Origin: Pseudomonadota bacterium
GTDB lineage: Bacteria > Pseudomonadota > Gammaproteobacteria > UBA4575
Assembly: GCA_039182865.1 (NCBI GenBank)
Contig: JBCDBX010000001.1
Span: forward strand, 2,239 to 66,238
Direction: 5' to 3'
Length of the DNA stretch: 64,000 nt
This document shows, one piece after another, positions 6,077-53,919 of the stretch. The stretch's first letter is position 1. Each line of letters starts with the position of its first letter. The notes beneath the pieces were generated by a model. That model searched no databases. It worked only from the letters and a program-made list of their open reading frames with translations, and had not been told where the DNA came from. The position numbers and the translations under genes are program-made.

Positions 6077-6172
6077 ATTAATTAAACTTGACGAGAGTCA
6101 CGATTTTTTAATTAAATTCTGAAACTCGATTTATTTTAGGGTCATAGCAAATATTAGTCGAGATAGAAAGAT

Positions 6173-6742
6173 CTATTCTTTTACACGCGATACATATTCA
6201 CCTGTTCGCGTGTCAATCTTGATCACTTCACCTTCTTCAACAAATAGCGGGACTTTCACCATAGCACCTGTTTCTAGCGTGGCGGGTTTTGTTGCGCCTT
6301 GGGCCGTATCCCCTTTCACCCCAGGATCGGACTGTGTGATTTTAAGTTCAACAAAATTTGGTGCACTCACGGATAGTGGTGCACCGTTATATAAAGTGAC
6401 AGTGCATACATCATTATCCTTCAACCACTTTGCAGAATCGGCTACTGCAGTGGCATCCGCTGCATGCTGTTCATAGGTCTCTGGATGCATGAAATGCCAT
6501 TGCTCGCCATCGTTATACAAGTACTGCATATCAGTTTCCATGACATCGGCACCTTCGACACTATCTCCGGACTTGAATGTGCGATCAACTACACGACCAG
6601 TTTTTAAATTGCGCACTTTCACGCGATTAAATGCCTGACCTTTACCGGGCTTGACGAATTCATTTTCGACGATTGTGTAGGGATCGCCATCCAACATGAT
6701 TTTCAAACCTGACTTGAATTCATTTGTACTGTAGCTAGCCAT
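6173..6742 (-). CDS. efp: Translation elongation factor P
   Basis: 189 aa. Near-identical motifs to E. coli EF-P, including KPGKGQAF, which carries the beta-lysylated Lys. Confidence 0.95.
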
Positions 6743-6771
6743 AGAGATACTTCTAAATTGAAAGACGCGCT

Positions 6772-7960: not shown

Positions 7961-9706
7961 ATGCTTCTGGATATGCAAATCTATATACCAAGTCAGGACC
8001 CGTTGGCTCATGAAGATTTCGCATTGACACCTCGAAAAGTTAAAAAGTGGATTAAGTCAGCATCACTTGCTGATCCGCAAAAAGCAAGCACGGAATTAAT
8101 CGAACTTATCTCCAATAGCAACCGTGTTACATTCCCAAGCAAGCAGCGCTACGCCTCATTAGAAATATTGGCGCCAATTTGTAAATCAATTTTAGCCCAA
8201 CATAGTAAATCTTTATCTCATCAGACGTTTCCTCTATCAGGAAATGCCGTAAAAAGTCATAATTTTCAGCAATCAATTTTAGCTGAAATAGCAATCTCTT
8301 ATAAGATTATTATTGCTGAAGCTGTGCATGGTGATAACAGTCTCAATCAGAAGAAATTACTATTATCACTTTTCAAGGCTATTTGTTGTTTAAAACAAGA
8401 ATATGTTTCGAGCTTACTAACATATCAAAAAATCTCAGAAAACATCTGGCCTGATATCTGTCAGCTCTATCGTGTTGCAGAATTTTATGATTTTCAAAAT
8501 CGTGTTGTTCAAGATAGAGAGCTTTCAGAAAAAACAACAATCGCAAATATTTTTAAGTATCTATGCTCACTGACCATGATTTCATTCAATAAACTAAGGC
8601 AAGGTGAGGCAAGTGCTATTATAAAATTTTTAAACAAAAACTGTCAGCTAATCGAAATTCAAAGTAATCTTGAGACATTTACTGAAGATTATATTTATCT
8701 TGCTAATTTAGCGACTGGCAAACCGCCTTCGTACTACATACCTAGAGAAGTTCCCATATCTTCAGAGAACCGTTTTGTGCTTTATTCTTTATTCATAAAT
8801 AAACTTTCTGAATTAAAGCAAAAGTATGTGCAGTCTCATTCATACTATCTACACTCTGATGATGAGATTGATCCAGATCTTGCCAATCGTTTAATCGAAA
8901 TGATAGGCAAGCCTACACAAAGAAGCAAAAAGCGCCTAAAAAGCAATCAAAAAGTTAAAGCTATTATTTGCCTAGATAAGATTTTAGAGACTTTAAATCC
9001 TGAACAAGATGAGCCTGATCCCTTAGCTGAAGATTCTTATATTCTACATAGCATGGCCTTGTTACCGATTGAAGAAAAATCAAAAATTATTTTTGATGAA
9101 TCAAAGACAGGAGACAGTCAATGTCTAGATATCTCTCAAAATCTTTCAGATATTTGGGAACATGACTCAGAATTGAATTCTAAGAATGAACAACCTGAAG
9201 AAATAAAAAATAATGATGCCAATGAAACGGGAACCTGGAAAATCGATAACTATAGCTCAGGTGGGTTTTGCCTCACTTATGACACAGATGGAAGTTGCAA
9301 AACACGCGTTGGTGAAATCATCGCTATTCGTGACACAAACAACGCAGATCAAACCATTCAATGGTTAACCGGAACAATTCGGTGGATGCAATGTGATCCA
9401 CAGCATTCAAACCGAATTGGCGTTGAACTATTTGGTGCTGAATGCGCATTTATTACAATACATACTAATAATAATGATTCGACTAAATATCATGGTCTTT
9501 TACTTAAGAAAATTGAAGATAATGAAAAGAAATTTAGCTTGTTAGTCCCTACTCGAGTAAGTTTTGATTCAAATGACATAGTTATACGTGGCAAGAAAAG
9601 TGAACGTAGTGCGATTCTAGGACAAACACTTGAAAAGACTAGCTCTTTTACACATTTTGAAATACTTGAAATAGCGACACAGAATCAAGTTTTAAATAAT
9701 TTATAA
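7961..9706 (+). CDS. 581-aa protein: an approximately 420-aa N-terminal region of unknown function plus a C-terminal non-canonical PilZ domain
   Basis: Residues about 425-500 read KIDNYSSGGFCL ... RVGEIIAIRD ... GTIRWMQ ... RIGVELFG. This matches the PilZ (D/N)xSxxG motif and the beta-barrel core. No RxxxR sits at the canonical -20 to -30 position. The nearest is RSKKR, about 105 aa upstream. Confidence 0.55.
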   Translation: MLLDMQIYIPSQDPLAHEDFALTPRKVKKWIKSASLADPQKASTELIELISNSNRVTFPSKQRYASLEILAPICKSILAQHSKSLSHQTFPLSGNAVKSHNFQQSILAEIAISYKIIIAEAVHGDNSLNQKKLLLSLFKAICCLKQEYVSSLLTYQKISENIWPDICQLYRVAEFYDFQNRVVQDRELSEKTTIANIFKYLCSLTMISFNKLRQGEASAIIKFLNKNCQLIEIQSNLETFTEDYIYLANLATGKPPSYYIPREVPISSENRFVLYSLFINKLSELKQKYVQSHSYYLHSDDEIDPDLANRLIEMIGKPTQRSKKRLKSNQKVKAIICLDKILETLNPEQDEPDPLAEDSYILHSMALLPIEEKSKIIFDESKTGDSQCLDISQNLSDIWEHDSELNSKNEQPEEIKNNDANETGTWKIDNYSSGGFCLTYDTDGSCKTRVGEIIAIRDTNNADQTIQWLTGTIRWMQCDPQHSNRIGVELFGAECAFITIHTNNNDSTKYHGLLLKKIEDNEKKFSLLVPTRVSFDSNDIVIRGKKSERSAILGQTLEKTSSFTHFEILEIATQNQVLNNL

Positions 9707-9718
9707 GCAGTATGCAGT

Positions 9719-11794
9719 ATGGATGAAGTATTAAAATTATTAGTACTTAGCAATAATGCTAACAATGCAGATGATATTATCAGAACTGCCAAGTCTTCAG
9801 GGTTTGCAGTTCGTGATACTATTGTGTCATCCAAAGATGAGTTTTCTGACATATGCTCTTTTGTAGAACAATTCCATATTGCCATTATTTCTGATGACTT
9901 TGACCAGCTTAGCATTAATGAAGTTAGCTCTAGCCTCAAAAGTGATGAACATTATGTATCACTCATTGCACTCAGCAATAATATTGCAGAGACTCAAGCT
10001 GAATCGATGTCAAATGGAGCTGATGCCGTTATCCCTGCAGATGATAAATCACAGCTGACACATGCAATTACACAAATTGCAAAAACTGAATTATATATTC
10101 AGAATCTGCAATCCAAATCAGATGCATATGAGGATTTAAATCAACGCTACCAAAAAATTCTTAATATTTCGCAAGACGCTATTTGTTATATCCATGAAGG
10201 CTTGCACACCTATGTTAATAAATCCTACCTGAAATTATTTGGCATTGAGGATATGGAAGATGCAAGCGCTCTTTCGATTCTTGAACTTGTCAGCCCTGAG
10301 GATCATGATAACTTAAAAAATATTTTAAAAGACGTCCATAAAAATCAAAACTCAGGCGACACTAAGCTAAATTTTAAAACTCAAAATAAAACACAGATTC
10401 TTCAAGCAACTTATGACCCAGTACTTGTTGAAGGAGAAATTTGTGCACAATTTGTTATTCATTGGGAAATAGAAAGCTCTGAAGAGTTGCAGGAACAGAT
10501 TAGTTATATCTCTGAAAGAGATCTTGAGACTGGCTTCTTTCATAGAAAGTCTATCATCGATAAATTACAAGAAGTTTTAAAACCAGACCGCAGTGAATTA
10601 GTCACACACACATTTGTACAAATCGATATAGCAAACCTTGATTACATTCAAGACCAACAAGGCGTTATTGCATTGGACCAGCTTAGCACACATATTGCGG
10701 ATACACTTCAGTCATCTTGTGATGGTGAAGATCTGCTAGCAAAAATCACGGACAAGTCTTATGGCATCCTCACGGATATTACTGACAGTGAGCAGTTAAT
10801 TTTATTTGGAGAGAAATTACGTGAGAGATTTGATGATAATCCTTTAAAAGTTAATGGCATCACCATCGAGCCTAAATTTTATATTGGTGCTGTTCATTTA
10901 GATGAAATGATCGAACAAGCCTCAGATGCGCTTGCTGCCTCTAAGCAGGCTTGTGACCACGCTAGCGAGCATGACCTTAATGAACTCTATTTATATCAAA
11001 GAGACCCTGCAACACTCACAGGAACAATGCTTGATCAAAAATGGGCAAATGAATTACAAGAAGCTATTGATGAGAATCGACTTAAACTTCAATTCCAACC
11101 GATTATTAGTACCAATAACGATAATATTGATCGCTATCAAGTTTATACTCAACTAATTAGTAGAGAAGGCACCAAAATTTCAGTTGCTGGGATTTTGCCC
11201 AGTATTGAACGCTCTGGTGTCTCTTCCATGTTTGATCGATGGGTCGTTGATTTATCATTGATCAAACTTGCCGAGCATACGCAACATAATCCGAATTCAC
11301 AGTTCTTTGTTAAGTTAACCGCAGGTGCGGTATCTGATGCTTCATTTATTCCATGGCTTAGCAAAAAGTGTACTAGTCGAGGCGTTGATCCTGAGAGAGT
11401 GATATTTGATTTGCGTGAAGATGTGGCTATCAATAATTTAAAAGAAACGAGATCATTCTCTACAGAACTCAAGAAACTTGGTTTCCAAATTGCAATTGAT
11501 TCATTCGGCATTGGGCAAGACCCCAGCAAAATACTGACCATGGTTCCTGCGGCTTATTTAAAACTAAGCTTTCAGTTAGTCTCTGGGATTAAAGACAATG
11601 ATGAGGAAAAAATTCAAGCCATCAGAAATATCTGCGAGGCCGCGAGTAATTCCGGTACCAAGATAGTAGCGCAGTTTGTAGAAAACGCAGAAGTCTTATC
11701 ACAATTATGGACAATGAATATTGACTATATAAGCGGTGATTTTTTCTGCAAAGTGGGTGCAAGCTTAGAGTACGACTTTTCAAGCGCTGCCTAG
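9719..11794 (+). CDS. FimX-like degenerate c-di-GMP protein: REC-like / PAS / GGDEF-like / EAL-like
   Basis: 691 aa. REC-like N-terminus with the acidic pair replaced (LLVLSNN). PAS (ICYIHEGLHTYVNKSYLKLFGIE). GGDEF fold starting ERDLETGFFHR, with the A-site GG(D/E)EF position reading TDKSYG. EAL fold (LQFQPIIS...) with EAL replaced by QVY and DDFGTG replaced by DSFGIG. The C-terminal (V)AEGVE and QGY positions read VAQFVE and SGDFF. Confidence 0.75.
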   Translation: MDEVLKLLVLSNNANNADDIIRTAKSSGFAVRDTIVSSKDEFSDICSFVEQFHIAIISDDFDQLSINEVSSSLKSDEHYVSLIALSNNIAETQAESMSNGADAVIPADDKSQLTHAITQIAKTELYIQNLQSKSDAYEDLNQRYQKILNISQDAICYIHEGLHTYVNKSYLKLFGIEDMEDASALSILELVSPEDHDNLKNILKDVHKNQNSGDTKLNFKTQNKTQILQATYDPVLVEGEICAQFVIHWEIESSEELQEQISYISERDLETGFFHRKSIIDKLQEVLKPDRSELVTHTFVQIDIANLDYIQDQQGVIALDQLSTHIADTLQSSCDGEDLLAKITDKSYGILTDITDSEQLILFGEKLRERFDDNPLKVNGITIEPKFYIGAVHLDEMIEQASDALAASKQACDHASEHDLNELYLYQRDPATLTGTMLDQKWANELQEAIDENRLKLQFQPIISTNNDNIDRYQVYTQLISREGTKISVAGILPSIERSGVSSMFDRWVVDLSLIKLAEHTQHNPNSQFFVKLTAGAVSDASFIPWLSKKCTSRGVDPERVIFDLREDVAINNLKETRSFSTELKKLGFQIAIDSFGIGQDPSKILTMVPAAYLKLSFQLVSGIKDNDEEKIQAIRNICEAASNSGTKIVAQFVENAEVLSQLWTMNIDYISGDFFCKVGASLEYDFSSAA

Positions 11795-22305: not shown

Positions 22306-22737
22306 ATGAACACCATTAACAATCCAGTTGGACTAATAAAACGTTTCATTATTATGATCTATGATGCAATCTTACTTATTGCTGTTCTATTTTTTGCAGC
22401 TATTATTATCTCGGTGCCGTTAAATATTACTTTTGGTGATCCACTATATCCACTGTTCATAATTTATATTTATTGCATAGGCTTTTTATTTCTTGGTTGG
22501 TGTTGGACTCATGGTGGACAAACTTTGGGGCTAAAAACATGGAGAATAAAGCTTGTATCGACGTCCGGCAACGAAGTCAGTTGGAAAGAAGCATTAATTC
22601 GTTATCTCGCATCGCTACTATGTTGGGCAAGTCTGGGAATTGGATTTTTATGGTGCTATACCAACAAAGAAAGATTGGCTTGGAATGATATGCTCTCTAA
22701 AACTCGTTTACAGAAAATACCAAACACTAACGTGTAA
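22306..22737 (+). CDS. RDD-family membrane protein
   Basis: 143 aa with three TM segments. RDD/YckC-like organisation (KRFIIMIYDAILLIAV...). Low-information call. Confidence 0.45.
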   Translation: MNTINNPVGLIKRFIIMIYDAILLIAVLFFAAIIISVPLNITFGDPLYPLFIIYIYCIGFLFLGWCWTHGGQTLGLKTWRIKLVSTSGNEVSWKEALIRYLASLLCWASLGIGFLWCYTNKERLAWNDMLSKTRLQKIPNTNV

Positions 22738-31452: not shown

Positions 31453-33159
31453 ATGAAACTGCTACTTCCATTGTTACTAGTATCACTCTTATCGTCTGCT
31501 GCATTTGCCGACAAGAATAAGCACTCTACTAAAGAATTATTAGAAGAGGCAGAGCAGACTATGCAAAGCCCAGAAGTTTCACCTGTGCGAAGAATCGAAC
31601 CTAAATTCAACAAGAATAAAAATAAACAGCACAATATTATTTATCGGAATATTGATGGTAGTTTCAACAATATTATCGATGATCAAATGAATGTCACAGA
31701 TACACAATTGATACGAGTCGCTGATGAAACTTACGGTGATGGTATCAGTGCTATGGGAGGAACTGATCGACCAAACCCAAGAGCAATCAGTAATGCGGCG
31801 TTATCTCAGACAGAATTATCATTCGCAAGTACAGGGGCAAGTGATTTTTTATGGCAATGGGGTCAATTTTTGGATCATGATATTGATTTGACCGAGGGCG
31901 TACACCCTGCCGAAGAAGTCCCTATCTCCATTCCTGCTGGTGATATACATTTCGACCCAAATAATATGGGCAATGTCGTCTTAGCATTCAACCGTTCAAT
32001 ATATGATACAAATACGGGAACAGATTCCAGTAATCCGCGTCAGCAAAAAAATGAAATTACGGGTTGGATTGATGCTTCGAATGTATATGGCTCGGATGAT
32101 GAACGCGCTCAAGCTTTGCGCAGATTGGATGGTTCAGGAAAGCTAAAAACTAGCGATGGTCGCCTTCTACCATTTAATACTGATGGCTTAATTAATGCAG
32201 GCGGTCCTAGTGCTGAATTTTTCTTGGCAGGCGACCCTCGTGCGAATGAACAAATAGGCTTAACCGTCATGCATACTCTGTTCGTGCGAGAACATAACCG
32301 TCTTGCAAGAATAATCGCTAAAAAGAATCCATTTTACAGCGGCGAAAGAATTTATCAGACAGCTCGTCGAATCGTAGCGGCTCAAATGCAAGTCATCACT
32401 TACAATGAATTTTTACCGATACTACTTGGCAAAAATGCAATTCCTAAATATGAAGGCTATGATCCTAATATAGACGCACGTATTGCAAACGAATTTTCAA
32501 CAGCGGCGTACCGACTCGGCCATAGTTTGCTATCACCACAAATTCTACGTATATATAAAAAACGTAAAAATTTCGACAATAGTGAAATCTCTTTACGCGA
32601 AGCTTTCTTTGCACCATTTCTTCTGACCAAAAAGAATAACATTGGCTCTATATTGCGCGGCTTAGCTTCTCAACAGTGTCAAGAACTTGATGTGTTCGTT
32701 ATTGATGACGTACGTAATTTCTTGTTTGGTCAGCCCGGAAGCGGAGGCTTTGATCTTGCTTCATTAAACATTCAACGTGGGCGAGATCATGGTCTTGGAA
32801 GCTACAATCAAACACGTATTGCACTTGGTTTACCTGCTGCTACTTCATTTGAAGATATTTCTTCTGACCCTGACATCCAAGCTAGACTTTCCAATGCTTA
32901 CGACAACGTAGACTTAATCGACCTCTGGGTGGGGGGATTAGCTGAAGATAAAGTTGATGGCGCCATGGTCGGACCCGTATTTTATGAGATTCTTAGAGAT
33001 CAATTCATACGCTTACGTGACGGAGATCGATTTTGGTACGAAAACGATATGAGTAAGAAAGAAATAAGGAACATTAAGAAAACAACTTTAGCAAAAATAA
33101 TTCGGCGCAATACAGGAGTTGGCAGAGAATTACAAAACAATGTTTTCTTGGTTAAGTAA
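31453..33159 (+). CDS. Secreted animal-type heme peroxidase (peroxidase-cyclooxygenase superfamily)
   Basis: Signal peptide. Distal His/Asp motif WGQFLDHDID. RANEQ heme-linking Glu motif. Proximal His in TLFVREHNRLA. Distal Arg in FSTAAYRLGHS. Confidence 0.8.
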   Translation: MKLLLPLLLVSLLSSAAFADKNKHSTKELLEEAEQTMQSPEVSPVRRIEPKFNKNKNKQHNIIYRNIDGSFNNIIDDQMNVTDTQLIRVADETYGDGISAMGGTDRPNPRAISNAALSQTELSFASTGASDFLWQWGQFLDHDIDLTEGVHPAEEVPISIPAGDIHFDPNNMGNVVLAFNRSIYDTNTGTDSSNPRQQKNEITGWIDASNVYGSDDERAQALRRLDGSGKLKTSDGRLLPFNTDGLINAGGPSAEFFLAGDPRANEQIGLTVMHTLFVREHNRLARIIAKKNPFYSGERIYQTARRIVAAQMQVITYNEFLPILLGKNAIPKYEGYDPNIDARIANEFSTAAYRLGHSLLSPQILRIYKKRKNFDNSEISLREAFFAPFLLTKKNNIGSILRGLASQQCQELDVFVIDDVRNFLFGQPGSGGFDLASLNIQRGRDHGLGSYNQTRIALGLPAATSFEDISSDPDIQARLSNAYDNVDLIDLWVGGLAEDKVDGAMVGPVFYEILRDQFIRLRDGDRFWYENDMSKKEIRNIKKTTLAKIIRRNTGVGRELQNNVFLVK

Positions 33160-33167
33160 TAGTATAT

Positions 33168-44344: not shown

Positions 44345-47300
44345 TTAGTACACCACGCGCGCTTCTCTAACTCCATTAAGTGTGCTCAAGCGGCGCAACA
44401 AATCTCGTTGCGGAACAACACTCCATTGTTTACCTAGCCGATATTGAGCTTCTACATTATCTGATTTATAACGAATATGTACTCGACACTCTCCATCTCG
44501 ATAGGGCTGTAACGTACTTTCTAGCTCTCCCAACAATGACTGCCTAGCGTCATCCACGCTTATAATAATACCTCTGCCATATTCAATTCGCGCATCCTCA
44601 AGACGCGTGATATTTTTTGCACGCACGCGTGGTTTACCATTGTAATCGTCAATGCTGATAACCCCTTCAACAATCAAAATTTGATCTTTGACTAACAAAT
44701 TTTTGAATTGGCTATAAGAATCAGCAAATACAGCGACATGAATACGAGCGGTATTATCATCTAGTGTTAAAAACGCAATGCGACCAGAAGGACTATTACG
44801 CAATCGCATCTCCACTAATAAGCCACCGACTTTAATTGAGTTAGAATCTCTATTGCGATAATTGTTTTCTACTGGTGCGATAGGAGTAGACAATCTATCT
44901 TTTAAAGTCTTACCCACAATGCTAATGAGTTCATCACGATACTGGTCAACAGGATGTCCAGAAAAATACAAACCTAAAGTTTCACGCTCAGCTGCCAGCA
45001 ATGTATCGTCGTCCCATTCAGGTTTTTCTTCAACTTTAGCTTCACGCGCAATCAATTTACCACCGCCAAACATATCATTCTGACCTAGGTCATCATTACG
45101 TTGATGTTGTTCTGCTGCTTGCAACGCACGTGGTAAATGATGCATTAAACTTGCGCGCGTGTGATTAAAACTGTCCAAAGCACCTGAACGAATCATAGCT
45201 TCCATACTGCGACGATTAAATTTTTGTGTTTCTAAACGCAAACACAAATCATGCAAGGATTTATAATTTCCTTGTTGTTCGCGATTTTGAATTAAGGATT
45301 CAATGGCCGACTCACCTACTCCTTTAATAGCTCCTAAACCATAAACAATCTTCTGATCTTTTGTTACAGTAAACCCATACTCAGACTCATTGGCATCAGG
45401 CGGCAATACATTCAGACCCATGGTTTTACATTCTTCTCGCAAATGAACCACCTTATCCGTATTATCCATATCCGCCGATAGCACTGATGCCATAAATTCT
45501 GCAGGATAATGCGACTTTAACCAGGCAGTTTGATAAGACAACATGGCATAAGCCACTGAATGTGATTTATTGAAGCCATAACCAGCGAATTTTTCCATTA
45601 GATCGAAAATATAGTTTGCTTTATTATCATCCACCCCACGTTCCGTCGAACCTTTTACAAATACCGATCGTTGCTTTGCCATTTCTTCAGGTTTCTTTTT
45701 CCCCATCGCACGACGCAAAAGATCTGCACCACCCAAGGTATAACCTGCTAAGACCTGTGCGATCTGCATTACTTGTTCTTGATAAAGAATGACACCATAA
45801 GTTTCACTTAGAATGGCTTCTAAATCTGGATGTGGATATTCGATACGCGCACCATGTTTACGATCGATAAAATCATCAACCATGCCGGACTGCAAAGGTC
45901 CAGGACGATATAGCGCTACCATCGCAACCACATCATCAAACTTGTCTGGCTTAAGACGACCCAAGATATCTTTAAGTCCTTCAGACTCTAATTGAAATAC
46001 AGCGGTCGTCTGTTGATTTTGTAACAACTTATAAGTGGCTTCGTCATCAAGGGGCAATGCATTTAAGTCCACAGGTTTTTGTCCTTCTTGGCTGCGACGT
46101 GCATTCACGCTTTTTAAAGTACGATCAATTATCGTTAATGTTCTTAATCCAAGAAAATCAAACTTCACTAAGCCTATAGCTTCAACATCATCCTTATCTA
46201 ACTGTGTAACAACATTAGCCCCACCTGCTTCACAATAGAGCGGTGTAAAGTCAGTTAACTTGGAAGGTGCAATCACGACACCACCTGCATGCTTTCCAGC
46301 ATTTCTAGCCATGCCTTCCAACTTCAAAGCCATGTCCATTAATGTCCCAACCTCTTCTTCTTCATCTACCATTTGTTTGAAATCTTTTTCACGCTCGAGA
46401 GCTTTCTCAAGCGTCATACCAACCTCAAATGGAATCATTTTGGCAATTCTGTCGACAAAACCATATGGATGCCCTAGCACACGACCCACATCACGCACCA
46501 CCGCTTTTGCTGCCATACTTCCATAAGTAATGATCTGACTCACTTTTTCACGGCCATAACGCTTAGCGACATAATCAATCACTCGATCACGACCCGCCAT
46601 GCAAAAATCGATATCAAAGTCAGGCATTGAGACACGTTCTGGATTTAGGAATCTCTCAAAAAGTAAATCGTATTGCATTGGATCGATATCAGTAATCCCT
46701 AAAGCATAAGCGACTAAAGAACCTGCACCTGAACCACGCCCAGGCCCTACCGGCACCTCATTATCACGTGACCACTGAGTGAAATCTGCAACAATTAAGA
46801 AGTAACCGGAATAACCCATGTTTTCTATGACGCCCAACTCAACTTCTAAACGCTGCTTATACTCTTCTTCATTAATATCTAAATTAATTGCACGTAATTG
46901 ACGAATACGATCTTGTAAGCGCTTTTCCGATTGTTGGCGTAAAAATTCATCTGTCGTTAAATCCCCAGTTGGAAATTCAGGCAAAACATTTTTACCAAAT
47001 TCCAATCTCACGTTGCAACGTTTAGCAATTTCAATAGTATTTGATATTGCAGATGGCACATCTTCGTAAAGCTCAATCATTTCCTCGGCGGATCGTAAAT
47101 ACTGCTCTTCACTGTACATTCTTGGACGACGCGGATCAGACAAAACACGACCTTGATTGATACATACGCGCACCTCATGTGCTTCAAACTCCTCCGGAAG
47201 CAAGAAGCGAACATCATTAGTTGCAACCACAGGCACTTGTTTTATTTCTGCCAAATTTAGCGCAAAATTATTATAGGCATCTTCTCTTTCACGGCCCGTT

Positions 47301-47809
47301 CTTTGCAGCTCAATATAATAACGATCTTCAAAATGATCCAACCATGCGATTAAACATTCCTCACTACGCTGACTATCTTCTTTGATTAGTAATTTACCTA
47401 AATCACCATCCGTGCCACCCGAGAGCGTGATTAATCCTGCATTACGTTCAAATATCCAGTCACGTTTTAAAGTAGGCAACCCCCCATGTTGGCCGTCGAT
47501 GTAAGCAAGTGTGAGTAACTCTGTTAAATTACGGTAGCCCTCATTATTCATGCATAATAAAGCCACTCTAAATTGGTCTTGATACTGAGGATCTGAGACC
47601 AATACATCGGCACCAATAATGGGTTTAATACCTTTCGCTAAAGCGCCACGATAAAATTTGACCAAAGCAAATAAGTTAGAAAAATCGGTTAGCGCAATTG
47701 CAGGCATTTGTAACTCAACCGCTTTATCCATCAACGCGGGAATACGCACTAACCCATCGACGATAGAATATTCGCTATGAATACGTAGGTGAATAAAGTT
47801 TGGATCCAT
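44345..47809 (-). CDS. dnaE: DNA polymerase III alpha subunit
   Basis: 1154 aa with PHP, pol III alpha core and OB domains. Confidence 0.97.
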   Translation of the reverse strand: MDPNFIHLRIHSEYSIVDGLVRIPALMDKAVELQMPAIALTDFSNLFALVKFYRGALAKGIKPIIGADVLVSDPQYQDQFRVALLCMNNEGYRNLTELLTLAYIDGQHGGLPTLKRDWIFERNAGLITLSGGTDGDLGKLLIKEDSQRSEECLIAWLDHFEDRYYIELQRTGREREDAYNNFALNLAEIKQVPVVATNDVRFLLPEEFEAHEVRVCINQGRVLSDPRRPRMYSEEQYLRSAEEMIELYEDVPSAISNTIEIAKRCNVRLEFGKNVLPEFPTGDLTTDEFLRQQSEKRLQDRIRQLRAINLDINEEEYKQRLEVELGVIENMGYSGYFLIVADFTQWSRDNEVPVGPGRGSGAGSLVAYALGITDIDPMQYDLLFERFLNPERVSMPDFDIDFCMAGRDRVIDYVAKRYGREKVSQIITYGSMAAKAVVRDVGRVLGHPYGFVDRIAKMIPFEVGMTLEKALEREKDFKQMVDEEEEVGTLMDMALKLEGMARNAGKHAGGVVIAPSKLTDFTPLYCEAGGANVVTQLDKDDVEAIGLVKFDFLGLRTLTIIDRTLKSVNARRSQEGQKPVDLNALPLDDEATYKLLQNQQTTAVFQLESEGLKDILGRLKPDKFDDVVAMVALYRPGPLQSGMVDDFIDRKHGARIEYPHPDLEAILSETYGVILYQEQVMQIAQVLAGYTLGGADLLRRAMGKKKPEEMAKQRSVFVKGSTERGVDDNKANYIFDLMEKFAGYGFNKSHSVAYAMLSYQTAWLKSHYPAEFMASVLSADMDNTDKVVHLREECKTMGLNVLPPDANESEYGFTVTKDQKIVYGLGAIKGVGESAIESLIQNREQQGNYKSLHDLCLRLETQKFNRRSMEAMIRSGALDSFNHTRASLMHHLPRALQAAEQHQRNDDLGQNDMFGGGKLIAREAKVEEKPEWDDDTLLAAERETLGLYFSGHPVDQYRDELISIVGKTLKDRLSTPIAPVENNYRNRDSNSIKVGGLLVEMRLRNSPSGRIAFLTLDDNTARIHVAVFADSYSQFKNLLVKDQILIVEGVISIDDYNGKPRVRAKNITRLEDARIEYGRGIIISVDDARQSLLGELESTLQPYRDGECRVHIRYKSDNVEAQYRLGKQWSVVPQRDLLRRLSTLNGVREARVVY

Positions 47810-48420
47810 TAAATAACTTCTGCGACCGGTTTAAAGCTTCTTCTATGATATTGGCATGCACCATATTGTTTTAAGGCAGCTAAATGTTGTGCTGTCGGAT
47901 ACCCTTTATGCTGAGCGAAACCATACTGCGGGAATGATTTGTCAAGATTAATCATTTCCGCATCGCGTGTAACTTTAGCAATTATAGAAGCGGCTCCAAT
48001 GGCGGGTACATGTTGGTCACCCTTGATTACCGCATAGGACTCAACGGATAACTCTGGACTAAACTTTCCATCCACTAATACCAATTCTATCTGTGTATCA
48101 AGCCCATCAAAAGCGCGTTGCATGGCAAGCAAACTCGCATTGAAGATATTATACCGATCTATTTCACATGCATTACACTGACCAATTGACCAAGACAGTG
48201 CATGTTCTTTGATCAGATTTGATAATTTTTCACGTTTTGCAGGTGATAATTTTTTTGAATCCTGAACTTCGTCCCAGCTCAAAGTATCGCCAAGCACGAC
48301 TGCCGCTGCAATAACTGAACCTGCCAGTGGCCCACGCCCTGCCTCATCAATACCCACATAAGTATTGATATCAACACTTATGCTTGAAAAATTAATAACC
48401 TTAGAGTGCTTCTTAATCAA
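47809..48420 (-). CDS. rnhB: Ribonuclease HII
   Basis: VGIDEAGRGPLAGSV catalytic motif. The true start is probably a non-ATG codon (TTG or GTG) near 48390-48420, not the long ATG-initiated ORF that runs to 48510. Confidence 0.85.
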   Translation of the reverse strand: MIKKHSKVINFSSISVDINTYVGIDEAGRGPLAGSVIAAAVVLGDTLSWDEVQDSKKLSPAKREKLSNLIKEHALSWSIGQCNACEIDRYNIFNASLLAMQRAFDGLDTQIELVLVDGKFSPELSVESYAVIKGDQHVPAIGAASIIAKVTRDAEMINLDKSFPQYGFAQHKGYPTAQHLAALKQYGACQYHRRSFKPVAEVI

Positions 48421-48510
48421 AATTCTTATCTGAATAATCTCAATCAAACTGCCAACAAATGCAATAGAATACGTATACTTAGAATTTTTATAACACATTA
48501 CGACAAGCAA

Positions 48511-49434
48511 ATGGGAATAATAAAAGCGGGAGTAGTTGGAGTCGGCTACTTAGGGAAATTTCATGCTGAAAAATACAACTCGCTCAAAAATTGTCACCTG
48601 TTGGGTGTCGTCGACACTAATGAATCCACAGCTATCAATGTAGCTAGAGATCTAACTAATGTTAGCGCATTTAAAAATTATCTAGATATTCTCGATCAAG
48701 TTGATGCGGTAAGTATTGTCACGACAACACCGGCACATTATGAAATTGCACGCGCTTTTCTATCTAAAGGAAAACATGTCTTACTCGAAAAGCCTATTAC
48801 ATCAACAACAGAACAGGCAGAAGAATTAATCTCTCTAGCCGATCAAAATAATTGCATTTTACAAATTGGACATATTGAACGTTTTAACCCTGCAGTACTG
48901 GCGATGGATGTATATCTACAGTCACCAAAATTTATCGAATCCCATCGCTTGTCGCCCTTTCGAGAGCGTGGAACAGACGTTGACGTTGTACTAGACCTCA
49001 TGATCCATGATATTGATATTATTCTTAGCATTGTGAATAGCGATATAGAAGACATACAAGCATCAGGCATGTGTGTATTGTCTGATGCAATTGATATCGC
49101 TAATGCGCGCATTACATTTAAAAATAATTGTGTTGCAAATGTAACAGCCAGTCGCGTAAGTAACAAAACCGAACGTAAACTACGTTTGTTTCAAGAAAAT
49201 GCTTACTTTTCAGCTGATTTAGCAAGTCATGATTTAAAAATTTATACTAGAGAAGAAAAAAAGATTGACTCACATAGCCTCACCTATGATAAATCTGATG
49301 CTTTACTCACGGAAATCAGTCAATTTTTAGATTGCATAGAGTCTAACTCTCAACCGTTAGTGACTGGCGCTGACGGGCTGCGTGCTTTGAGAACAGCCGA
49401 TATAATCAACCAAAAGATTCAACCTCAAAATTAA
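48511..49434 (+). CDS. gnnA: Gfo/Idh/MocA NAD-dependent oxidoreductase, GnnA-like (UDP-GlcNAc 3-dehydrogenase)
   Basis: N-terminal Rossmann motif MGIIKAGVVGVGYLGKFH. The start is placed at this Met, not the upstream ORF extension. Immediately followed by a DegT-family aminotransferase and lpxB. Confidence 0.7.
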   Translation: MGIIKAGVVGVGYLGKFHAEKYNSLKNCHLLGVVDTNESTAINVARDLTNVSAFKNYLDILDQVDAVSIVTTTPAHYEIARAFLSKGKHVLLEKPITSTTEQAEELISLADQNNCILQIGHIERFNPAVLAMDVYLQSPKFIESHRLSPFRERGTDVDVVLDLMIHDIDIILSIVNSDIEDIQASGMCVLSDAIDIANARITFKNNCVANVTASRVSNKTERKLRLFQENAYFSADLASHDLKIYTREEKKIDSHSLTYDKSDALLTEISQFLDCIESNSQPLVTGADGLRALRTADIINQKIQPQN

Positions 49435-50543
49435 TGTCTATGCCGATAACACCAATCCCTATGGTTGACTTGCGTACGCAATATCACACCTTAAAAGATG
49501 AAATCCAATCAGCCTTAAATGATACGCTAGAAAGTACTGCTTTCATTATGGGGCCTAATGTTCAAGCCTTTGAGAACGAAGCTGCAAAATATTTAAACTG
49601 CCAACATGCTTTAGGGTGTGCTTCAGGCACTGATGCATTGCATCTGGCTTTACGCGCACTTGAGATAACAAAGGATGATGAAGTAATTGTACCCTCATTT
49701 ACATTTGCTGCGACGGCAGAAGCAATTCGCTATGTCGGTGCAACACCCGTATTTGTAGACATTGAACTAGACTCACTCAATATCAATCCAGAAAAAATAG
49801 AACAAGCAATTAGTGATAAAACCAAAGCTATCATCGCAGTACATCTATTTGGATTGCCTGCCGATATTGGCGCTATTCAATCTATTATTGATGGCAAAGA
49901 TATTTATTTAATTGAAGATTGTGCGCAATCCTTTGGTGCAGAGTATAAAAAGAAAAAAACAGGAATACTAGGAGACATGGGATGCTTCAGTTTCTTTCCT
50001 AGCAAAAATTTAGGTTGTTATGGCGATGGTGGCATGGTCAGCACCGATAATGATGAACTTGCAGAAAAAGTTAAATTGTTTCGCAATCATGGCAGTCCTG
50101 TCAGATACGAGCATAGTATTATTGGTTTCAATAGTCGTCTTGATGAAATACAAGCAACAGTACTACGTATAAAATTAAAGTATATAGACAAATATAATCA
50201 AAATCGAAACCTAGCAGCAAAGAGATACACCCTGAAGCTTTCTGAATTAGGCATACAAACCCCTATTGAAAAATCTGAAAGCAGCCACGTTTTTCATCAA
50301 TACACTCTTTTAGATTTACGTCGCGACTCAATTTTTAAAGCGCTACAAAGAAATAATATAGCCTGCGCTATCTATTACCCCAAAGGCTTGCACGCTCAAG
50401 AAGCTTTCAAAGACAATTCTGTTATTAAAGACTTAGCCATCACAGAATATGCCACCTCTAACTGCTTATCACTTCCCATGTTTCCTGAACTATCAGAACA
50501 ACAGATAGATCGAGTTGTTGATATAATAAAAGAAGCTATCTAA
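49434..50543 (+). CDS. gnnB: DegT/DnrJ/EryC1-family PLP aminotransferase, GnnB-like
   Basis: 369 aa, DegT-family fold with the PLP lysine region (FSFFPSKNLG). Start overlaps the gnnA stop. Confidence 0.7.
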   Translation: MSMPITPIPMVDLRTQYHTLKDEIQSALNDTLESTAFIMGPNVQAFENEAAKYLNCQHALGCASGTDALHLALRALEITKDDEVIVPSFTFAATAEAIRYVGATPVFVDIELDSLNINPEKIEQAISDKTKAIIAVHLFGLPADIGAIQSIIDGKDIYLIEDCAQSFGAEYKKKKTGILGDMGCFSFFPSKNLGCYGDGGMVSTDNDELAEKVKLFRNHGSPVRYEHSIIGFNSRLDEIQATVLRIKLKYIDKYNQNRNLAAKRYTLKLSELGIQTPIEKSESSHVFHQYTLLDLRRDSIFKALQRNNIACAIYYPKGLHAQEAFKDNSVIKDLAITEYATSNCLSLPMFPELSEQQIDRVVDIIKEAI

Positions 50544-50549
50544 ACCTAA

Positions 50550-51656
50550 ATGGAAATCGTCATAAGCGCAGGTGAATCTTCAGGTGATATTCTTGGAGGA
50601 AAGCTTTGCGAAGAATTGCGACAGCTCGATAAAAATATCTCTCTCAGCGGTATTGGTGGACAAGCTATGCGCAAAGCCGGAGTTGATACATTGCATGATG
50701 TGAGTGAAACCGCAGTCATAGGCATCTATGAAGTTTTAAAACATTACCCTCGTCTACATAAAATATTATCCAATCTGAAAAGACACATCCAGCAAACACA
50801 ACCAAAGTTATTAATTTTAATAGACTATCCTGAATTTAACCTAAAACTCGCGGCTTATGCTAAATCTCTAAATATAAAAGTAATGTTTTATGTCAGCCCT
50901 CAAATTTGGGCCTGGCGTACAGGGAGGGTCAAAAAGATTAAACAGCGAGTTGACTTAATGGCAGTACTTTTCCCTTTTGAATTAGATTTTTACCGCAAAG
51001 AAAATATAAATAGTTGTTTAGTTAGACATCCATTATTACAGGAAGTTGAAAAATACATTCCTGTCAATTCGCTGCAAATGATGACTGTCGCCTTAGCACC
51101 GGGAAGCCGCAAAAGTGAAGTTAAAAAACTTTTTCCCATCATGTTAAAGGCTGCGGTTCTTCTGCATGATGAAAATCCCTCATTGAGGTTTATTGTACCC
51201 GTTGCACCTGGCTTCAATAAAAGCGACTTGATCAAACAATTAGACAACCTAAATATACCTATCACATTCGAAGAGAGTGATTTTTACAGCACTATTGATA
51301 AAAGCGATGTTGTAATGATTGCATCTGGCACCGCCTCTCTTCAAACCGCGCTAATGGGCAAAGCTATGGTAATAGTTTATAAGATTTCACCTATCACCTA
51401 TAGATTATTTGGTCATATGATAAAAGTTAAGCATATTAGTCTTGCGAATATTATTCTGAACAAGCGAGTCTTCACAGAACTACTGCAAAAAGAGGTGTCT
51501 CCAGAAAACCTTTACGAAGAAATAAAAATGCTACTCGATGACAATCAGAGACAGGACAAAATGAATGAGGTTCAAACACAGCTTTATAACATGCTTAATC
51601 AAGGATGCAACTCAAAGGAATTGGCAGAAAAAGCTATGCAACTAGCTGTTAACTAA
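50550..51656 (+). CDS. lpxB: Lipid-A-disaccharide synthase
   Basis: ISAGESSGDILGG ... SPQIWAWR ... PFE motifs match LpxB. Confidence 0.9.
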   Translation: MEIVISAGESSGDILGGKLCEELRQLDKNISLSGIGGQAMRKAGVDTLHDVSETAVIGIYEVLKHYPRLHKILSNLKRHIQQTQPKLLILIDYPEFNLKLAAYAKSLNIKVMFYVSPQIWAWRTGRVKKIKQRVDLMAVLFPFELDFYRKENINSCLVRHPLLQEVEKYIPVNSLQMMTVALAPGSRKSEVKKLFPIMLKAAVLLHDENPSLRFIVPVAPGFNKSDLIKQLDNLNIPITFEESDFYSTIDKSDVVMIASGTASLQTALMGKAMVIVYKISPITYRLFGHMIKVKHISLANIILNKRVFTELLQKEVSPENLYEEIKMLLDDNQRQDKMNEVQTQLYNMLNQGCNSKELAEKAMQLAVN

Positions 51657-52438
51657 CGAACCGTTCCTCGTTCACTATTCTCAATAAAATCGACCAGTAC
51701 GCGAACCTCTTCATACTCTTCGATCAAATCTGAAATTTTCTCTAGCTGCTCTGCTCTGGGGTTTTTAGAGATAATTAATTCTTTATACGCTTTATGTAAG
51801 ACCTGAATAAGTTTTTCATCAAAGCCTCTACGCCTTAAACCTTCCTTATTTAAACCGTAAGCCTTTGCCAAGTTGCCTGATGCTATTAGATAAGGAGGCA
51901 GATCTTTATTTAATGCAGAACCCATCCCACAAAATGAATGCATTCCGATGTGACAAAATTGATGGACTAAGGTGAATCCACCAAGCACAGCATAATCATC
52001 TACGACTACATGCCCAGCAATAGAGGCACCATTTGAAAAGATAGTATTGTTAGCAACAATGCAATCATGGGCAATATGCACATAAGCCATAATCCAGTTG
52101 CTATCACCAATTGTGGTCGCGCCCTCACCAAGCTCTGTGCCACGATTTATCGTACAAAATTCTCTAATTGTATTATTATCACCAATAATTAGTTTACTTT
52201 TTTCTCCTGCATATTTCTTATCTTGAGGTATCTCGCCAAGTGATGAAAATTGAAAAAGATGATTTTTTTTACCAATTTTAGTCGGACCCTGTATGACAAC
52301 ATGTGGCCCAATTTCTGTACCCTCATCTATTTCAACATAGGGGCCAATGATGCTATAGGGCCCAACCGTCACATTACTCGCCAACTCGGCACTCGGATCA
52401 ATAACAGCAGTTGAATGAATTTTATTTGAAGAAGACAT
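51653..52438 (-). CDS. lpxA: UDP-N-acetylglucosamine (or UDP-GlcNAc3N) acyltransferase
   Basis: Left-handed beta-helix hexapeptide repeats. The start is trimmed to the Met that gives the classic TAATG overlap with fabZ. Confidence 0.9.
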   Translation of the reverse strand: MSSSNKIHSTAVIDPSAELASNVTVGPYSIIGPYVEIDEGTEIGPHVVIQGPTKIGKKNHLFQFSSLGEIPQDKKYAGEKSKLIIGDNNTIREFCTINRGTELGEGATTIGDSNWIMAYVHIAHDCIVANNTIFSNGASIAGHVVVDDYAVLGGFTLVHQFCHIGMHSFCGMGSALNKDLPPYLIASGNLAKAYGLNKEGLRRRGFDEKLIQVLHKAYKELIISKNPRAEQLEKISDLIEEYEEVRVLVDFIENSERGTVR

Positions 52439-52887
52439 TAGAGATCTTTGAACATACACTTGAGTTCAGCACTTGCAGCCAACTCGTCACCCACGTATGC
52501 GTAGGTATCAAAGACACCATAATTTCTTTTCATGCGAGATAATTTCGATTCCAATCTCAATTGATCGCCTGGAACAACTGGACGTTTAAAGCGCGCATTA
52601 TCAATCCCAACAAACAGGAAAAGGCTCTCGTTTTCAGGTCGAGAATCGGGGTCACTCAGCACTAAAATACCTGATGCTTGAGCTAATGCTTCCAGAATTA
52701 AGACACCGGGGAAAACAGGTGTTTTTGGAAAGTGACCTTGAAAGAAGGCTTCATTAATCGAAACATTCTTGAGTCCAACTATCGATTCACCATGCTTACA
52801 CTCAAGCACACGATCAACTAATAAAAAAGGATAGCGGTGGGGAAGATACTGCATTATTTCATCAACGGACATTATATTGTTTTCCAT
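52438..52887 (-). CDS. fabZ: 3-hydroxyacyl-ACP dehydratase
   Basis: LPHRYPFLLVDRVLE hot-dog motif. Confidence 0.95.
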   Translation of the reverse strand: MENNIMSVDEIMQYLPHRYPFLLVDRVLECKHGESIVGLKNVSINEAFFQGHFPKTPVFPGVLILEALAQASGILVLSDPDSRPENESLFLFVGIDNARFKRPVVPGDQLRLESKLSRMKRNYGVFDTYAYVGDELAASAELKCMFKDL

Positions 52888-52890
52888 TTA

Positions 52891-53919
52891 TTATCCTTTT
52901 CGCTTGTCCGAAATATGCTTTTCTAAAGCCAATAATCTTTTAGCTATACTATCTAATTCTTTAAAACGCATTGCGTTTCTAATCCACTGCTTATTATCTT
53001 GTGCAGCTGTACCCGATGTGTAGACGCCAGGCTTATCAATAGATTGACTTATTTTAGTCATACCCATTACTTGAACGCCATCAGTAATTTCAATATGACC
53101 TTGAATACCTGCACCACCACCAATGGCGCAATATTTACCTATGATGGCGCTACCAGCAATTCCGACACATCCCGCAATTGCAGTATGTGCACCGATTTTT
53201 ACATTATGCGCAATTTGTATTTGATTATCGAGTTTCACTCCATCTTCTATGATGGTATCTTGTAAAGCGCCACGATCAATTGTGGTATTAGCACCGATCT
53301 CAACATCATTTCCAATTAAGACACGGCCTATCTGAGGAATTTTTTCCCATACACCATTATCATTGGCCAGACCAAATCCATCACTTCCAATCACAACACC
53401 AGGATGCACGATTACTCTTTTACCAATTAAGGTTGGACCTATAATTGTTACTCGCGGTAAAAATCTTGTGTTTGCGCCTATCCTGCAGCTTGCAGAAATC
53501 ACACTATTGGCGCCAATATAGACTTTACTTTCTATCTCACATTTCTCACTAATGACAACATTTGGTCCAATATAAACATTCTCAGAAATATTACATTCTG
53601 GATGAATAACTGCTGATGCATCTATACCTGGAACAAACTCTTCTTGCGGATAAAGCAACTGTGCTGCTCTCGCAAAGCTAAGGTAAGGATTTTTAGAAAC
53701 TAATTTAATTGCATTACCATAATTTTTTAATTCTGGAGTAACTATTACAGCAGTTGCATTAGTATGATTAAGACTATGTCTATATCGGGCAGAAACTGCA
53801 AAAGACAAAGCGCCTTGTCCCGCTTGATCAAGCTCAGCTATATGAGTTATTTCATGCTTTCCATCACCAATAATTTCAAGATCAATTTCATGAGCTAGCT
53901 CATCAATCGTATATGCCAT
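52891..53919 (-). CDS. lpxD: UDP-3-O-acylglucosamine N-acyltransferase
   Basis: 342 aa, hexapeptide repeats, lpxD-fabZ-lpxA order. Confidence 0.9.
   Translation of the reverse strand: MAYTIDELAHEIDLEIIGDGKHEITHIAELDQAGQGALSFAVSARYRHSLNHTNATAVIVTPELKNYGNAIKLVSKNPYLSFARAAQLLYPQEEFVPGIDASAVIHPECNISENVYIGPNVVISEKCEIESKVYIGANSVISASCRIGANTRFLPRVTIIGPTLIGKRVIVHPGVVIGSDGFGLANDNGVWEKIPQIGRVLIGNDVEIGANTTIDRGALQDTIIEDGVKLDNQIQIAHNVKIGAHTAIAGCVGIAGSAIIGKYCAIGGGAGIQGHIEITDGVQVMGMTKISQSIDKPGVYTSGTAAQDNKQWIRNAMRFKELDSIAKRLLALEKHISDKRKG

Follow-up and report, generated by a model that had tools for sequence, protein, structure and literature searches.

Does an inverted three-gene block within an lpx cluster equip an uncultured gammaproteobacterium to build its lipid A on 2,3-diamino-2,3-dideoxyglucose (GlcN3N), and how did the block come to be inverted? 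These questions are raised by a 64,000-nucleotide stretch of DNA (hereafter, the window), in which genes designated gnnA, gnnB and lpxB run against their neighbours. GnnA and GnnB constitute the route from UDP-GlcNAc to UDP-GlcNAc3N (PMC5644692, PMC8036547, PMC3342949), and Legionella pneumophila is among the species with GlcN3N lipid A (PMC8036547). Such amide-linked lipid A shows greater resistance to chemical and enzymatic deacylation and, in the species studied, has been tied to weak TLR4 activation and to resistance to antimicrobial peptides (PMC8036547). As detailed below, the gnnA-gnnB-lpxB unit very probably confers the capacity for GlcN3N lipid A, a chemistry hereby predicted for an uncultured gammaproteobacterial lineage.

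Gene organisation and transcription

The features of the locus are compiled in Table 1. ORF layout and family profiles bore out the original prediction that an oxidoreductase (Gfo/Idh/MocA) and a DegT aminotransferase are located directly upstream of lpxB, and the ORF coordinates placed the three genes, as proposed, on the strand opposite to rnhB and lpxA-fabZ-lpxD. All three are intact and enclosed between the minus-strand rnhB and the minus-strand lpxA-fabZ-lpxD. The pair had also been described as “fused” to lpxB, which is correct as to adjacency but not as to gene fusion. Matches to rRNA, tRNA or Rfam families were absent from the 64-kb window.

Table 1. Features of the gnnA-gnnB-lpxB locus (window coordinates).
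Feature	Coordinates	Strand	Remarks
dnaE	44345..47809	-	
rnhB (RNase HII)	47809..48420	-	NF000596, 262 bits; points away from gnnA
rnhB/gnnA divergent spacer	48421..48510	.	AT-rich, ~90 bp
gnnA	48511..49434	+	307 aa; Gfo/Idh/MocA; ATG at 48511
gnnB	49434..50543	+	369 aa; DegT/DnrJ/EryC1; predicted PLP-dependent UDP-3-keto-GlcNAc 3''-aminotransferase
lpxB	50550..51656	+	368 aa; lipid-A-disaccharide synthase; 6 nt after gnnB
lpxB/lpxA convergent stop overlap	51653..51656	.	CTAA
lpxA	51653..52438	-	UDP-GlcNAc(3N) acyltransferase; 261 aa from ATG, 268 aa if started at the GTG at 52459
fabZ	52438..52887	-	NF000582, 193 bits
lpxD	52891..53919	-	NF002060, 428 bits

The start of rnhB is uncertain: the TTG at 48420 yields 203 aa, which matches the relatives L084 and L085 (203 and 205 aa), and the maximal ORF extends to 48510. 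For gnnA, an alternative, longer GTG-initiated ORF from 48406 would enter the region upstream of rnhB. The gap equivalent to the rnhB/gnnA spacer measures 78–79 bp in L084 and L085, and the promoters of the rnhB and gnnA units are presumed, from the coordinates and these equivalent gaps, to lie within the spacer.

The gnnA/gnnB junction reads TAATG and contains a 1-nt overlap at 49434 only if the first gnnB ATG is used, as the second ATG at 49440 would give a 5-nt gap. The choice by one gene caller of a later ATG at 49461 is unlikely to be correct, because an I-P motif preceding M-V-D-L, upstream of 49461, is conserved in all relatives. The TAA of gnnB ends at 50543 and is separated from the lpxB ATG at 50550 by a 6-nt spacer, so the proposal that starts and stops overlap throughout the block is valid at most for gnnA/gnnB and fails for gnnB/lpxB. 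At the far end, lpxB TAA (51654–51656) and lpxA TAG (51655–51653) share CTAA, and the predicted 4-nt convergent overlap is thus exact in the sequence.

The two junctions within the block, at −1 (or +5) and +6 nt, together with the absence of an internal terminator from the site scan, fit a single gnnA-gnnB-lpxB transcript, and the spacing suggests that the three genes form one transcription unit. No ribosome-binding site or promoter for this unit stands out in the sequence, and the consensus promoter scan returned 11 sites, fewer than expected from the shuffle mean of 15.4. At the lpxB/lpxA junction, no terminator-like site was detected, and neither strand folded into a better hairpin than shuffled sequence did (z 1.17 and 0.17). 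Across the window, the seven convergent ORF pairs show gaps of 42, 78, −4, 57, −11, 8 and −4 nt, which indicates that genes in this compact genome are generally packed closely where they meet tail-to-tail. As three of these seven pairs overlap, a special meaning of the 4-nt lpxB/lpxA overlap was rejected.

Synteny and origin of the inversion

Relatives were compared as the original prediction had suggested, and the flipped layout was found to recur in many genomes rather than to be peculiar to this window; likewise, comparison with the E. coli cluster verified that lpxB is inverted relative to the canonical order. The matches listed by the genome contig scan had at most 57% identity, and the closer relatives L084 and L085 were found by exact-protein look-up. 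The flipped layout is present in these two closest relatives and in at least 17 further genomes, such as those of Legionella quinlivanii and Simiduia; S. aestuariiviva CECT 8571 (locus L072) is a cultured carrier. Divergence of rnhB and gnnA at their junction was seen in at least 19 other loci, among them those of Legionella, Simiduia, Chromatiales and Thiohalomonadaceae. The flipped gnnA(-gnnB)-lpxB module is consequently widespread in Gammaproteobacteria. Of note, one close BamA relative (72% identity) is present in Tara Oceans data.

At an Acidithiobacillus locus (L081), the same 15 neighbours are all on one strand, with gnnA-gnnB between lpxA and lpxB. The window order is lpxA | lpxB-gnnB-gnnA | rnhB, so that its genes from lpxA to rnhB are those of Acidithiobacillus in reverse. 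Since the same 15-gene neighbourhood exists on a single strand at that locus, the gnnA-gnnB-lpxB block is, judging from gene order, flipped in place relative to the collinear Acidithiobacillus arrangement, by an old inversion common to many Gammaproteobacteria. Flipping of the three genes would have caused the unit to be read from a promoter in the divergent rnhB spacer and to end tail-to-tail on lpxA.

Alternatively, lateral transfer might have brought in the block, which would have taken the place of an ancestral collinear lpxB in the opposite orientation. Its GC content of 0.37–0.38 is slightly under the 0.39–0.42 of the flanks, and LpxB is just 33–42% identical to other LpxB proteins, as such a gain might leave behind. 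The GC difference is small, however, and neither inverted repeats nor mobile-element genes were found at the two borders of the block, both of which were examined. Moreover, a single inversion suffices to account for gene content and order that are exactly those of Acidithiobacillus reversed, and the layout is shared with deeply diverged Gammaproteobacteria (BamA 40–58% identical), which makes the event ancient either way. Lateral gain is hence unlikely, and inversion in place is preferred.

Among the matches listed, 8 of 14 distinct flipped-layout loci have an lpxB/lpxA gap between −4 and +5 nt. It is highly doubtful that this flipped, terminator-less abutment of gnnA-gnnB-lpxB on lpxD-fabZ-lpxA represents a conserved regulatory device. 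If it did, convergent read-through would generate mutually antisense 3' ends and would couple expression of the genes for sugar amination and condensation inversely to those for the acyltransferases and FabZ, thereby tuning the GlcN3N content of lipid A.

Identity of GnnA and GnnB

GnnA matched Pfam profile PF01408 with 100 bits, as well as PF22725 and PF02894. Its best match in the PDB was 7bvj (2e-61, 211 bits), followed by an entry at 1e-17 and 67 bits, so that 7bvj is the sole strong relative of GnnA among solved structures. This entry is 97–99% identical to Acidithiobacillus proteins and, although its database label reads merely “Oxidoreductase, NAD-binding”, we take it to be the characterised GnnA, whose A. 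ferrooxidans structure is presumably that deposited as 7bvj/7bvk. Against Acidithiobacillus GnnA, BLASTP gave only 38% identity (E 2e-65), and motifs G10-x-G12-x-x-G15, E93-K94-P95 and D162-x3-H166 aligned with the same residues of 7bvj. The nearest NCBIfam model was an archaeal UDP-GlcNAc 3-dehydrogenase, matched with 210 bits and hence below its 450-bit cutoff; a model for bacterial GnnA or GnnB was absent from NCBIfam. GnnA is accepted here as a putative NAD-dependent UDP-GlcNAc 3''-dehydrogenase, an activity predicted from these matches.

GnnB matched PF01041 with 399.5 bits over 346 residues. Its predicted Schiff-base lysine, K191 in FFPSK, aligned with K185 of WbpE, and the best solved relatives in the PDB search were all sugar C-3 aminotransferases. 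The gnnA-linked neighbour from Acidithiobacillus was 48% identical (BLASTP, E 1e-120). A clade of gnnA-linked GnnB sequences, including those of Acidithiobacillus and the window, was monophyletic in 182 of 200 bootstrap replicates of a neighbour-joining tree, which is a distance method only and here comprised 53 sequences with few outgroups. WbpE, QdtB, DesV, 7B0D, 7N63 and one unlinked paralogue fell outside this clade. The aminotransferase thus sides with the gnnA-linked copies and not with the remaining sugar aminotransferases in this tree. E-values of 1e-60 to 1e-120 imply that neither the gene assignments nor the Acidithiobacillus matches arose by chance. Putative orthology of gnnA and gnnB with the Acidithiobacillus pair is therefore supported at the sequence level, and so is the proposed GnnA/GnnB pathway identity, through the 7bvj match, the identities to both Acidithiobacillus proteins, the GnnB clade and the position within the lpx cluster.

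Even if correctly identified, the pair could make UDP-GlcNAc3N (or a derivative, for example UDP-GlcNAc3NAc) that is destined not for lipid A but for another glycan, as in O-antigen, capsule or protein glycosylation, with adjacency to lpxB being incidental. Pairs of DegT and Gfo/Idh/MocA genes are common in surface-polysaccharide loci, and GnnB scores well against the PseC, ArnB and LegC models, yet below the cutoff of each; furthermore, the nearest dehydrogenase model in NCBIfam stems from archaea, which lack lipid A. Against this, gnnA is repeatedly linked to lpxB and/or lpxA, whether or not gnnB accompanies it, in genomes of Gammaproteobacteria, Acidithiobacillia and Desulfobacterota and in those of Geobacter type, and GnnB forms a monophyletic group with the lipid A enzyme of Acidithiobacillus. 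The pair is flanked by housekeeping lpx genes, bamA and dnaE, and not by genes for glycosyltransferases, flippases or polymerases. We thus consider a role outside lipid A very improbable.

It is scarcely credible that the pair acts in the manner of WbpB/WbpE on UDP-GlcNAcA, to initiate the 2,3-diacetamido-2,3-dideoxy-mannuronic acid pathway, because, although WbpE is sister to the GnnB clade in the neighbour-joining tree and matches GnnB with 271 bits and a common FFPSK...GCYGDGG motif, it lay outside the gnnA-linked clade in the same 182 replicates, no WbpB/WlbA-type structure was among the PDB matches of GnnA at E ≤ 1e-10 (7bvj, 2e-61), and no wbpA, wbpD or wbpI lookalike was present between dnaE and bamA.

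The lpx genes and the predicted pathway

LpxB matched TIGR00215 with 284.8 bits (cutoff 190.25) over residues 3–363 of 368, and PF02684 with 306 bits. LpxA (NF003657, 359 bits), FabZ, LpxD and RNase HII all exceeded curated cutoffs. LpxA aligned without gaps to the structures 1lxa (from E. coli) and 5dem (from P. aeruginosa), with His121 and His124 corresponding to E. coli H122 and H125, and Met172 at the hydrocarbon-ruler position, from which short, C10-like acyl chains would be predicted.

For GlcN3N lipid A, which is the favoured reading of the locus, GnnA would use NAD+ to oxidise UDP-GlcNAc at its 3''-OH, giving a 3''-keto sugar, which GnnB would convert to UDP-GlcNAc3N by means of PLP and an amine donor that is probably glutamate. 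The adjoining LpxA would then place an acyl chain on the 3-amine in place of the 3-hydroxyl, LpxC and subsequently LpxD would finish the diacylated monosaccharide, and LpxB, encoded by the third gene of the unit, would condense two such units.

The genes predict the capacity for UDP-GlcNAc3N, and lipid A that is exclusively GlcN3N or all-amide would go beyond that prediction. We know of no validated residue signature of LpxA for sugar selectivity. The window LpxA scored 288 bits against the Pseudomonas and 271 bits against the E. coli O-acyltransferases, compared with 189 bits against Leptospira LpxA (3hsq), which we take to be selective for GlcNAc3N. Owing to this closer relationship with the O-acyltransferases, the lipid A backbone could be mixed GlcN/GlcN3N rather than all-amide.

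Taken together, the observation was confirmed as real but ordinary: the pathway is the known GnnA/GnnB route, and the flipped layout is common to many related public genomes. The pathway, its enzymes and the lpx linkage have been known since 2004, and no new question is opened. The findings are of use for annotation of genes that are now named just “Gfo/Idh/MocA family oxidoreductase” and “DegT aminotransferase”.

Comparison with known systems

The E. coli cluster bamA-skp-lpxD-fabZ-lpxA-lpxB-rnhB-dnaE-accA shares its flanking genes and their order with the window, but it lacks gnnA and gnnB, and its lpxB is collinear and overlaps both lpxA and rnhB. P. aeruginosa WbpB/WbpE resemble the proposed GnnA/GnnB in catalysing C-3'' oxidation followed by PLP-dependent transamination, and WbpE (3nu7) is the nearest solved outgroup. 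They differ in their uronic acid substrate (UDP-GlcNAcA), O-antigen product and genomic context, and a WbpB-type dehydrogenase is not detectably close to the window GnnA among PDB matches at E ≤ 1e-10.

In Legionella quinlivanii (L039), as in the window, rnhB(−) and gnnA(+) diverge from one another, with lpxB(+) lying beyond gnnA. Unlike in the window, gnnB is not placed between gnnA and lpxB in L. quinlivanii or in two Legionellaceae metagenome-assembled genomes (L016 and L048), and the 8-kb flank downstream showed no lpxA-fabZ-lpxD.

The closest parallel is Acidithiobacillus. GnnA and GnnB were reportedly described in A. ferrooxidans by Sweet, Ribeiro and Raetz in 2004, with gnnA/gnnB said to lie between lpxA and lpxB. 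Acidithiobacillus and the window share the order gnnA, gnnB, lpxB, the neighbourhood from cdsA to tilS and the catalytic motifs. The Acidithiobacillus lpxD-fabZ-lpxA-gnnA-gnnB-lpxB-rnhB-dnaE cluster is collinear, with gnnA overlapping the lpxA stop, whereas in the window, from an uncultured gammaproteobacterium, the three genes point away from rnhB and meet lpxA tail-to-tail.

Gene content and junctions of the locus

All gene names at the locus were borne out by profile searches (see table). The original prediction of a gnnA–gnnB pair ahead of an inverted lpxB agreed with the ORF list and profile searches in coordinates and gene description, save for the internal overlaps and the term "fused", as no gene fusion links gnnA, gnnB and lpxB.

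Coordinates of genes and convergent gene pairs in the window
Feature	Position	Strand	Evidence or spacing
EpmA-like class II tRNA-synthetase paralogue	5138–6076	−	
efp	6173–6742	−	
epmB	6772–7758	+	TIGR03821, 343 bits, just below 369-bit cutoff
EAL protein/M48 peptidase convergent pair	11791–11794		4-nt overlap
RDD/lptG convergent pair	22727–22737		11-nt overlap
Peroxidase/glyoxalase convergent pair	33160–33167		8-nt gap
dnaE	44345–47809	−	ORF list
rnhB (RNase HII)	47809–48510 (maximal ORF)	−	Profile score above curated cutoff
gnnA (Gfo/Idh/MocA oxidoreductase)	48511–49434	+	ORF list; PF01408, 100 bits
gnnB (DegT/DnrJ/EryC1 aminotransferase)	49434–50543	+	ORF list; PF01041, 399.5 bits
lpxB	50550–51656	+	TIGR00215, 284.8 bits against cutoff of 190
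lpxA	51653–52438/52459	−	Profile score above curated cutoff
fabZ	52438–52887	−	Profile score above curated cutoff
lpxD	52891–53919	−	Profile score above curated cutoff
skp, bamA	Beyond lpxD, same side as lpxA–fabZ–lpxD	−	ORF list

In the sequence, gnnA and gnnB meet at TAATG, giving a 1-nt overlap with the first ATG or a 5-nt gap with the ATG at 49440, and a 6-nt spacer separates gnnB from lpxB. Of the overlapping starts and stops proposed for the block, the first is therefore possible and the second is absent. One public gene call placed the gnnB start at 49461. This was rejected because it would exclude the I-P preceding M-V-D-L; every relative keeps these residues, as does the Acidithiobacillus gene, and the start is therefore placed upstream. 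The rnhB start is most likely TTG 48420, yielding 203 residues as in relatives and thus a divergent rnhB/gnnA spacer of ~90 bp. The promoter of gnnA–gnnB–lpxB is presumed to lie in this spacer, where a consensus promoter scan gave support neither for nor against one. From the spacing and the absence of internal terminators, we infer that the three genes are co-transcribed.

The convergent 4-nt lpxB/lpxA overlap at 51653–51656 proved exact, with CTAA common to the lpxB TAA and the lpxA TAG. The stop-to-stop distance is likewise −4 nt in L085 and 0 in L084, the closest relatives fetched, 2–5 nt in loci L010, L023, L025, L035 and L068, 46–167 nt in L062, L079 and L006, and 514 nt to 3 kb in L008, L069 and L072. 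Neither an intrinsic terminator nor an unusually stable hairpin was found at this junction. Since some other convergent pairs of the window are also tight (gaps of 42, 78, −4, 57, −11, 8 and −4 nt across all seven pairs), terminator-less tail-to-tail packing is general in the genome rather than locus-specific; antisense regulatory coupling across the junction has a low probability.

Identity of GnnA and GnnB

GnnA had a single strong match among solved structures, namely PDB 7bvj (E 2e-61, 211 bits; runner-up 1e-17), which we take to be the characterised Acidithiobacillus enzyme. The 7bvj sequence, rebuilt from the GnnA alignment and used as query, was 97–99% identical to Acidithiobacillus-named proteins, and its Rossmann GxGxxG, EKP and D-x3-H motifs are kept in the aligned window protein. 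Compared with the Acidithiobacillus locus L081, identities were 38% for GnnA (2e-65), 48% for GnnB (1e-120), 44% for LpxA, 41% for LpxD and 33% for LpxB.

The top solved relatives of GnnB (7b0d, QdtB, 7n63, DesV and WbpE) are all classed as sugar C-3 aminotransferases, and its PLP lysine, K191 within FFPSK, aligned with K185 of Pseudomonas aeruginosa WbpE. A neighbour-joining tree was computed from 53 sequences: 47 were gnnA-linked copies taken from the loci fetched, five were PDB entries and the last was an unlinked paralogue. All gnnA-linked copies, including those of Acidithiobacillus and the window, formed one clade (182/200 bootstrap replicates), with WbpE as its sister and the remaining outgroup sequences outside; grouping with unrelated sugar-nucleotide pathways was not seen in this tree. 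The 7bvj match and the clustering with the Acidithiobacillus copy uphold the GnnA/GnnB assignment.

LpxA and the proposed lipid A route

The GnnA/GnnB pathway is established in Acidithiobacillus, according to passages citing Sweet et al. 2004 in PMC5644692, PMC8036547 and PMC3342949, and orthology and synteny suggest that it operates in the window organism. GnnA with NAD+ would convert UDP-GlcNAc into the 3''-keto sugar, from which GnnB with PLP would form UDP-GlcNAc3N, to be N-acylated at position 3 by LpxA. LpxC and LpxD would act thereafter, followed by pyrophosphatase cleavage of part of the pool and, finally, condensation of the two halves by LpxB. This LpxA may accept UDP-GlcNAc3N alone or both sugars, and the backbone could be all GlcN3N (2,3-diamino-2,3-dideoxyglucose) or mixed.

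Window LpxA (51653–52438) aligned without gaps to the E. coli and P. aeruginosa proteins, with the catalytic histidines kept (H121 and H124, corresponding to E. coli H122 and H125) and Met172 facing E. coli G173 and P. aeruginosa M169. Position 172 is the "hydrocarbon ruler" site, reportedly the subject of work by Wyckoff et al. in 1998, with M169 being C10-selective and G173 C14-selective. Met172 suggests that the 3-hydroxyacyl groups carried on positions 3 and 3' are short and C10-like.

Simiduia aestuariiviva (L072, 14285–15830) carries two tandem lpxA copies, 52–53% identical to window lpxA, and Methylococcales L004, L030, L042, L066 and L076 have a divergent lpxA-like gene (33–37% identity) just upstream of gnnA. 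These may be sugar-specific LpxA paralogues, as proposed for hybrid-backbone species in a passage of PMC3342949.

Other features of the window and its organism

A 568-residue protein (31453–33159, +) matched PF03098 ("animal haem peroxidase"; E 3e-162) along its whole length, and had no NCBIfam model. Among solved structures it was closest to 8s6c, "Lactoperoxidase" (E 4e-164), with peroxinectin A, myeloperoxidases and dual oxidase next. This superfamily has few bacterial members. At 5138–7758, the EF-P beta-lysylation genes are grouped as a complete set. Three ORFs lacked a Pfam match: 7961–9706 (+, 581 aa), 3475–4134 (−, 219 aa) and 2638–3396 (+, 252 aa), the last with only a weak C-terminal PEP-CTERM-like NCBIfam match (E 3e-6, below cutoff).

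No rRNA or tRNA was found in the window. Among the best 120 BamA matches (76% down to 57% identity), the named relatives were all uncultured "Gammaproteobacteria bacterium", and one match (72%) was also present in Tara Oceans data.

Gene order and inversion

Layouts were sorted for 86 sequences, comprising 85 loci and the window. The divergent rnhB(−)/gnnA(+) junction occurred in at least 21, or at least 19 without the window and its duplicate L083. Carriers among the loci listed include Chromatiales, Thiohalomonadaceae, Granulosicoccaceae, Legionella quinlivanii, Simiduia aestuariiviva, several "Gammaproteobacteria bacterium" MAGs and one "Pseudomonadota bacterium" MAG (L078); L085 and L084 (the latter on a 2.7-Mb contig), the closest relatives fetched, with GnnA 76% and 71% identical, have a layout identical to the window. 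The flipped layout is thus not peculiar to this contig. At least 24 other loci, of Acidithiobacillus, Geobacter-type, Desulfobacterales-type and Methylococcales (with the divergent lpxA paralogue), are collinear, with lpxA(+) immediately upstream of gnnA.

In the flipped-layout gammaproteobacteria L025 (12060–13132), L035 (7350–8263) and L008 (4460–5467), fabZ is followed almost at once by skp, leaving no space for lpxD, which must lie elsewhere in the genome; the window, unlike these, keeps lpxD in place. Separately, gnnA is directly followed by lpxB in L016, L039 and L048 (Legionella/Legionellaceae), L063 (Coxiella endosymbiont) and Desulfobacterales-type L060, L065, L067, L074, L075 and L080. 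With gnnB missing there in many lineages, the aminotransferase must be encoded elsewhere, and gnnA–lpxB is the more constant linkage.

Overall, the original observation was confirmed and its GnnA/GnnB interpretation supported. The window organism, itself uncultured, is probably one more carrier of this known pathway towards GlcN3N lipid A. The arrangement is already present in many public gammaproteobacterial genomes; the result is not surprising, and its value lies in annotation.

E. coli K-12 has the single-strand order bamA-skp-lpxD-fabZ-lpxA-lpxB-rnhB-dnaE-accA, and Acidithiobacillus L081 has the same order with gnnA-gnnB placed ahead of lpxB (cdsA-dxr-rseP-bamA-skp-lpxD-fabZ-lpxA-gnnA-gnnB-lpxB-rnhB-dnaE-accA-tilS, all on one strand). 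Relative to both, the inversion of lpxB is real. As the neighbours on either side are the same genes as in Acidithiobacillus and only the gnnA–gnnB–lpxB segment is reversed, one in-place inversion of exactly three genes accounts for the window layout. No inverted repeats were found at the borders of the block and no mobile-element genes are present nearby, which, together with the many gammaproteobacterial loci sharing the flipped layout, indicates that the inversion is old and widely inherited within Gammaproteobacteria.
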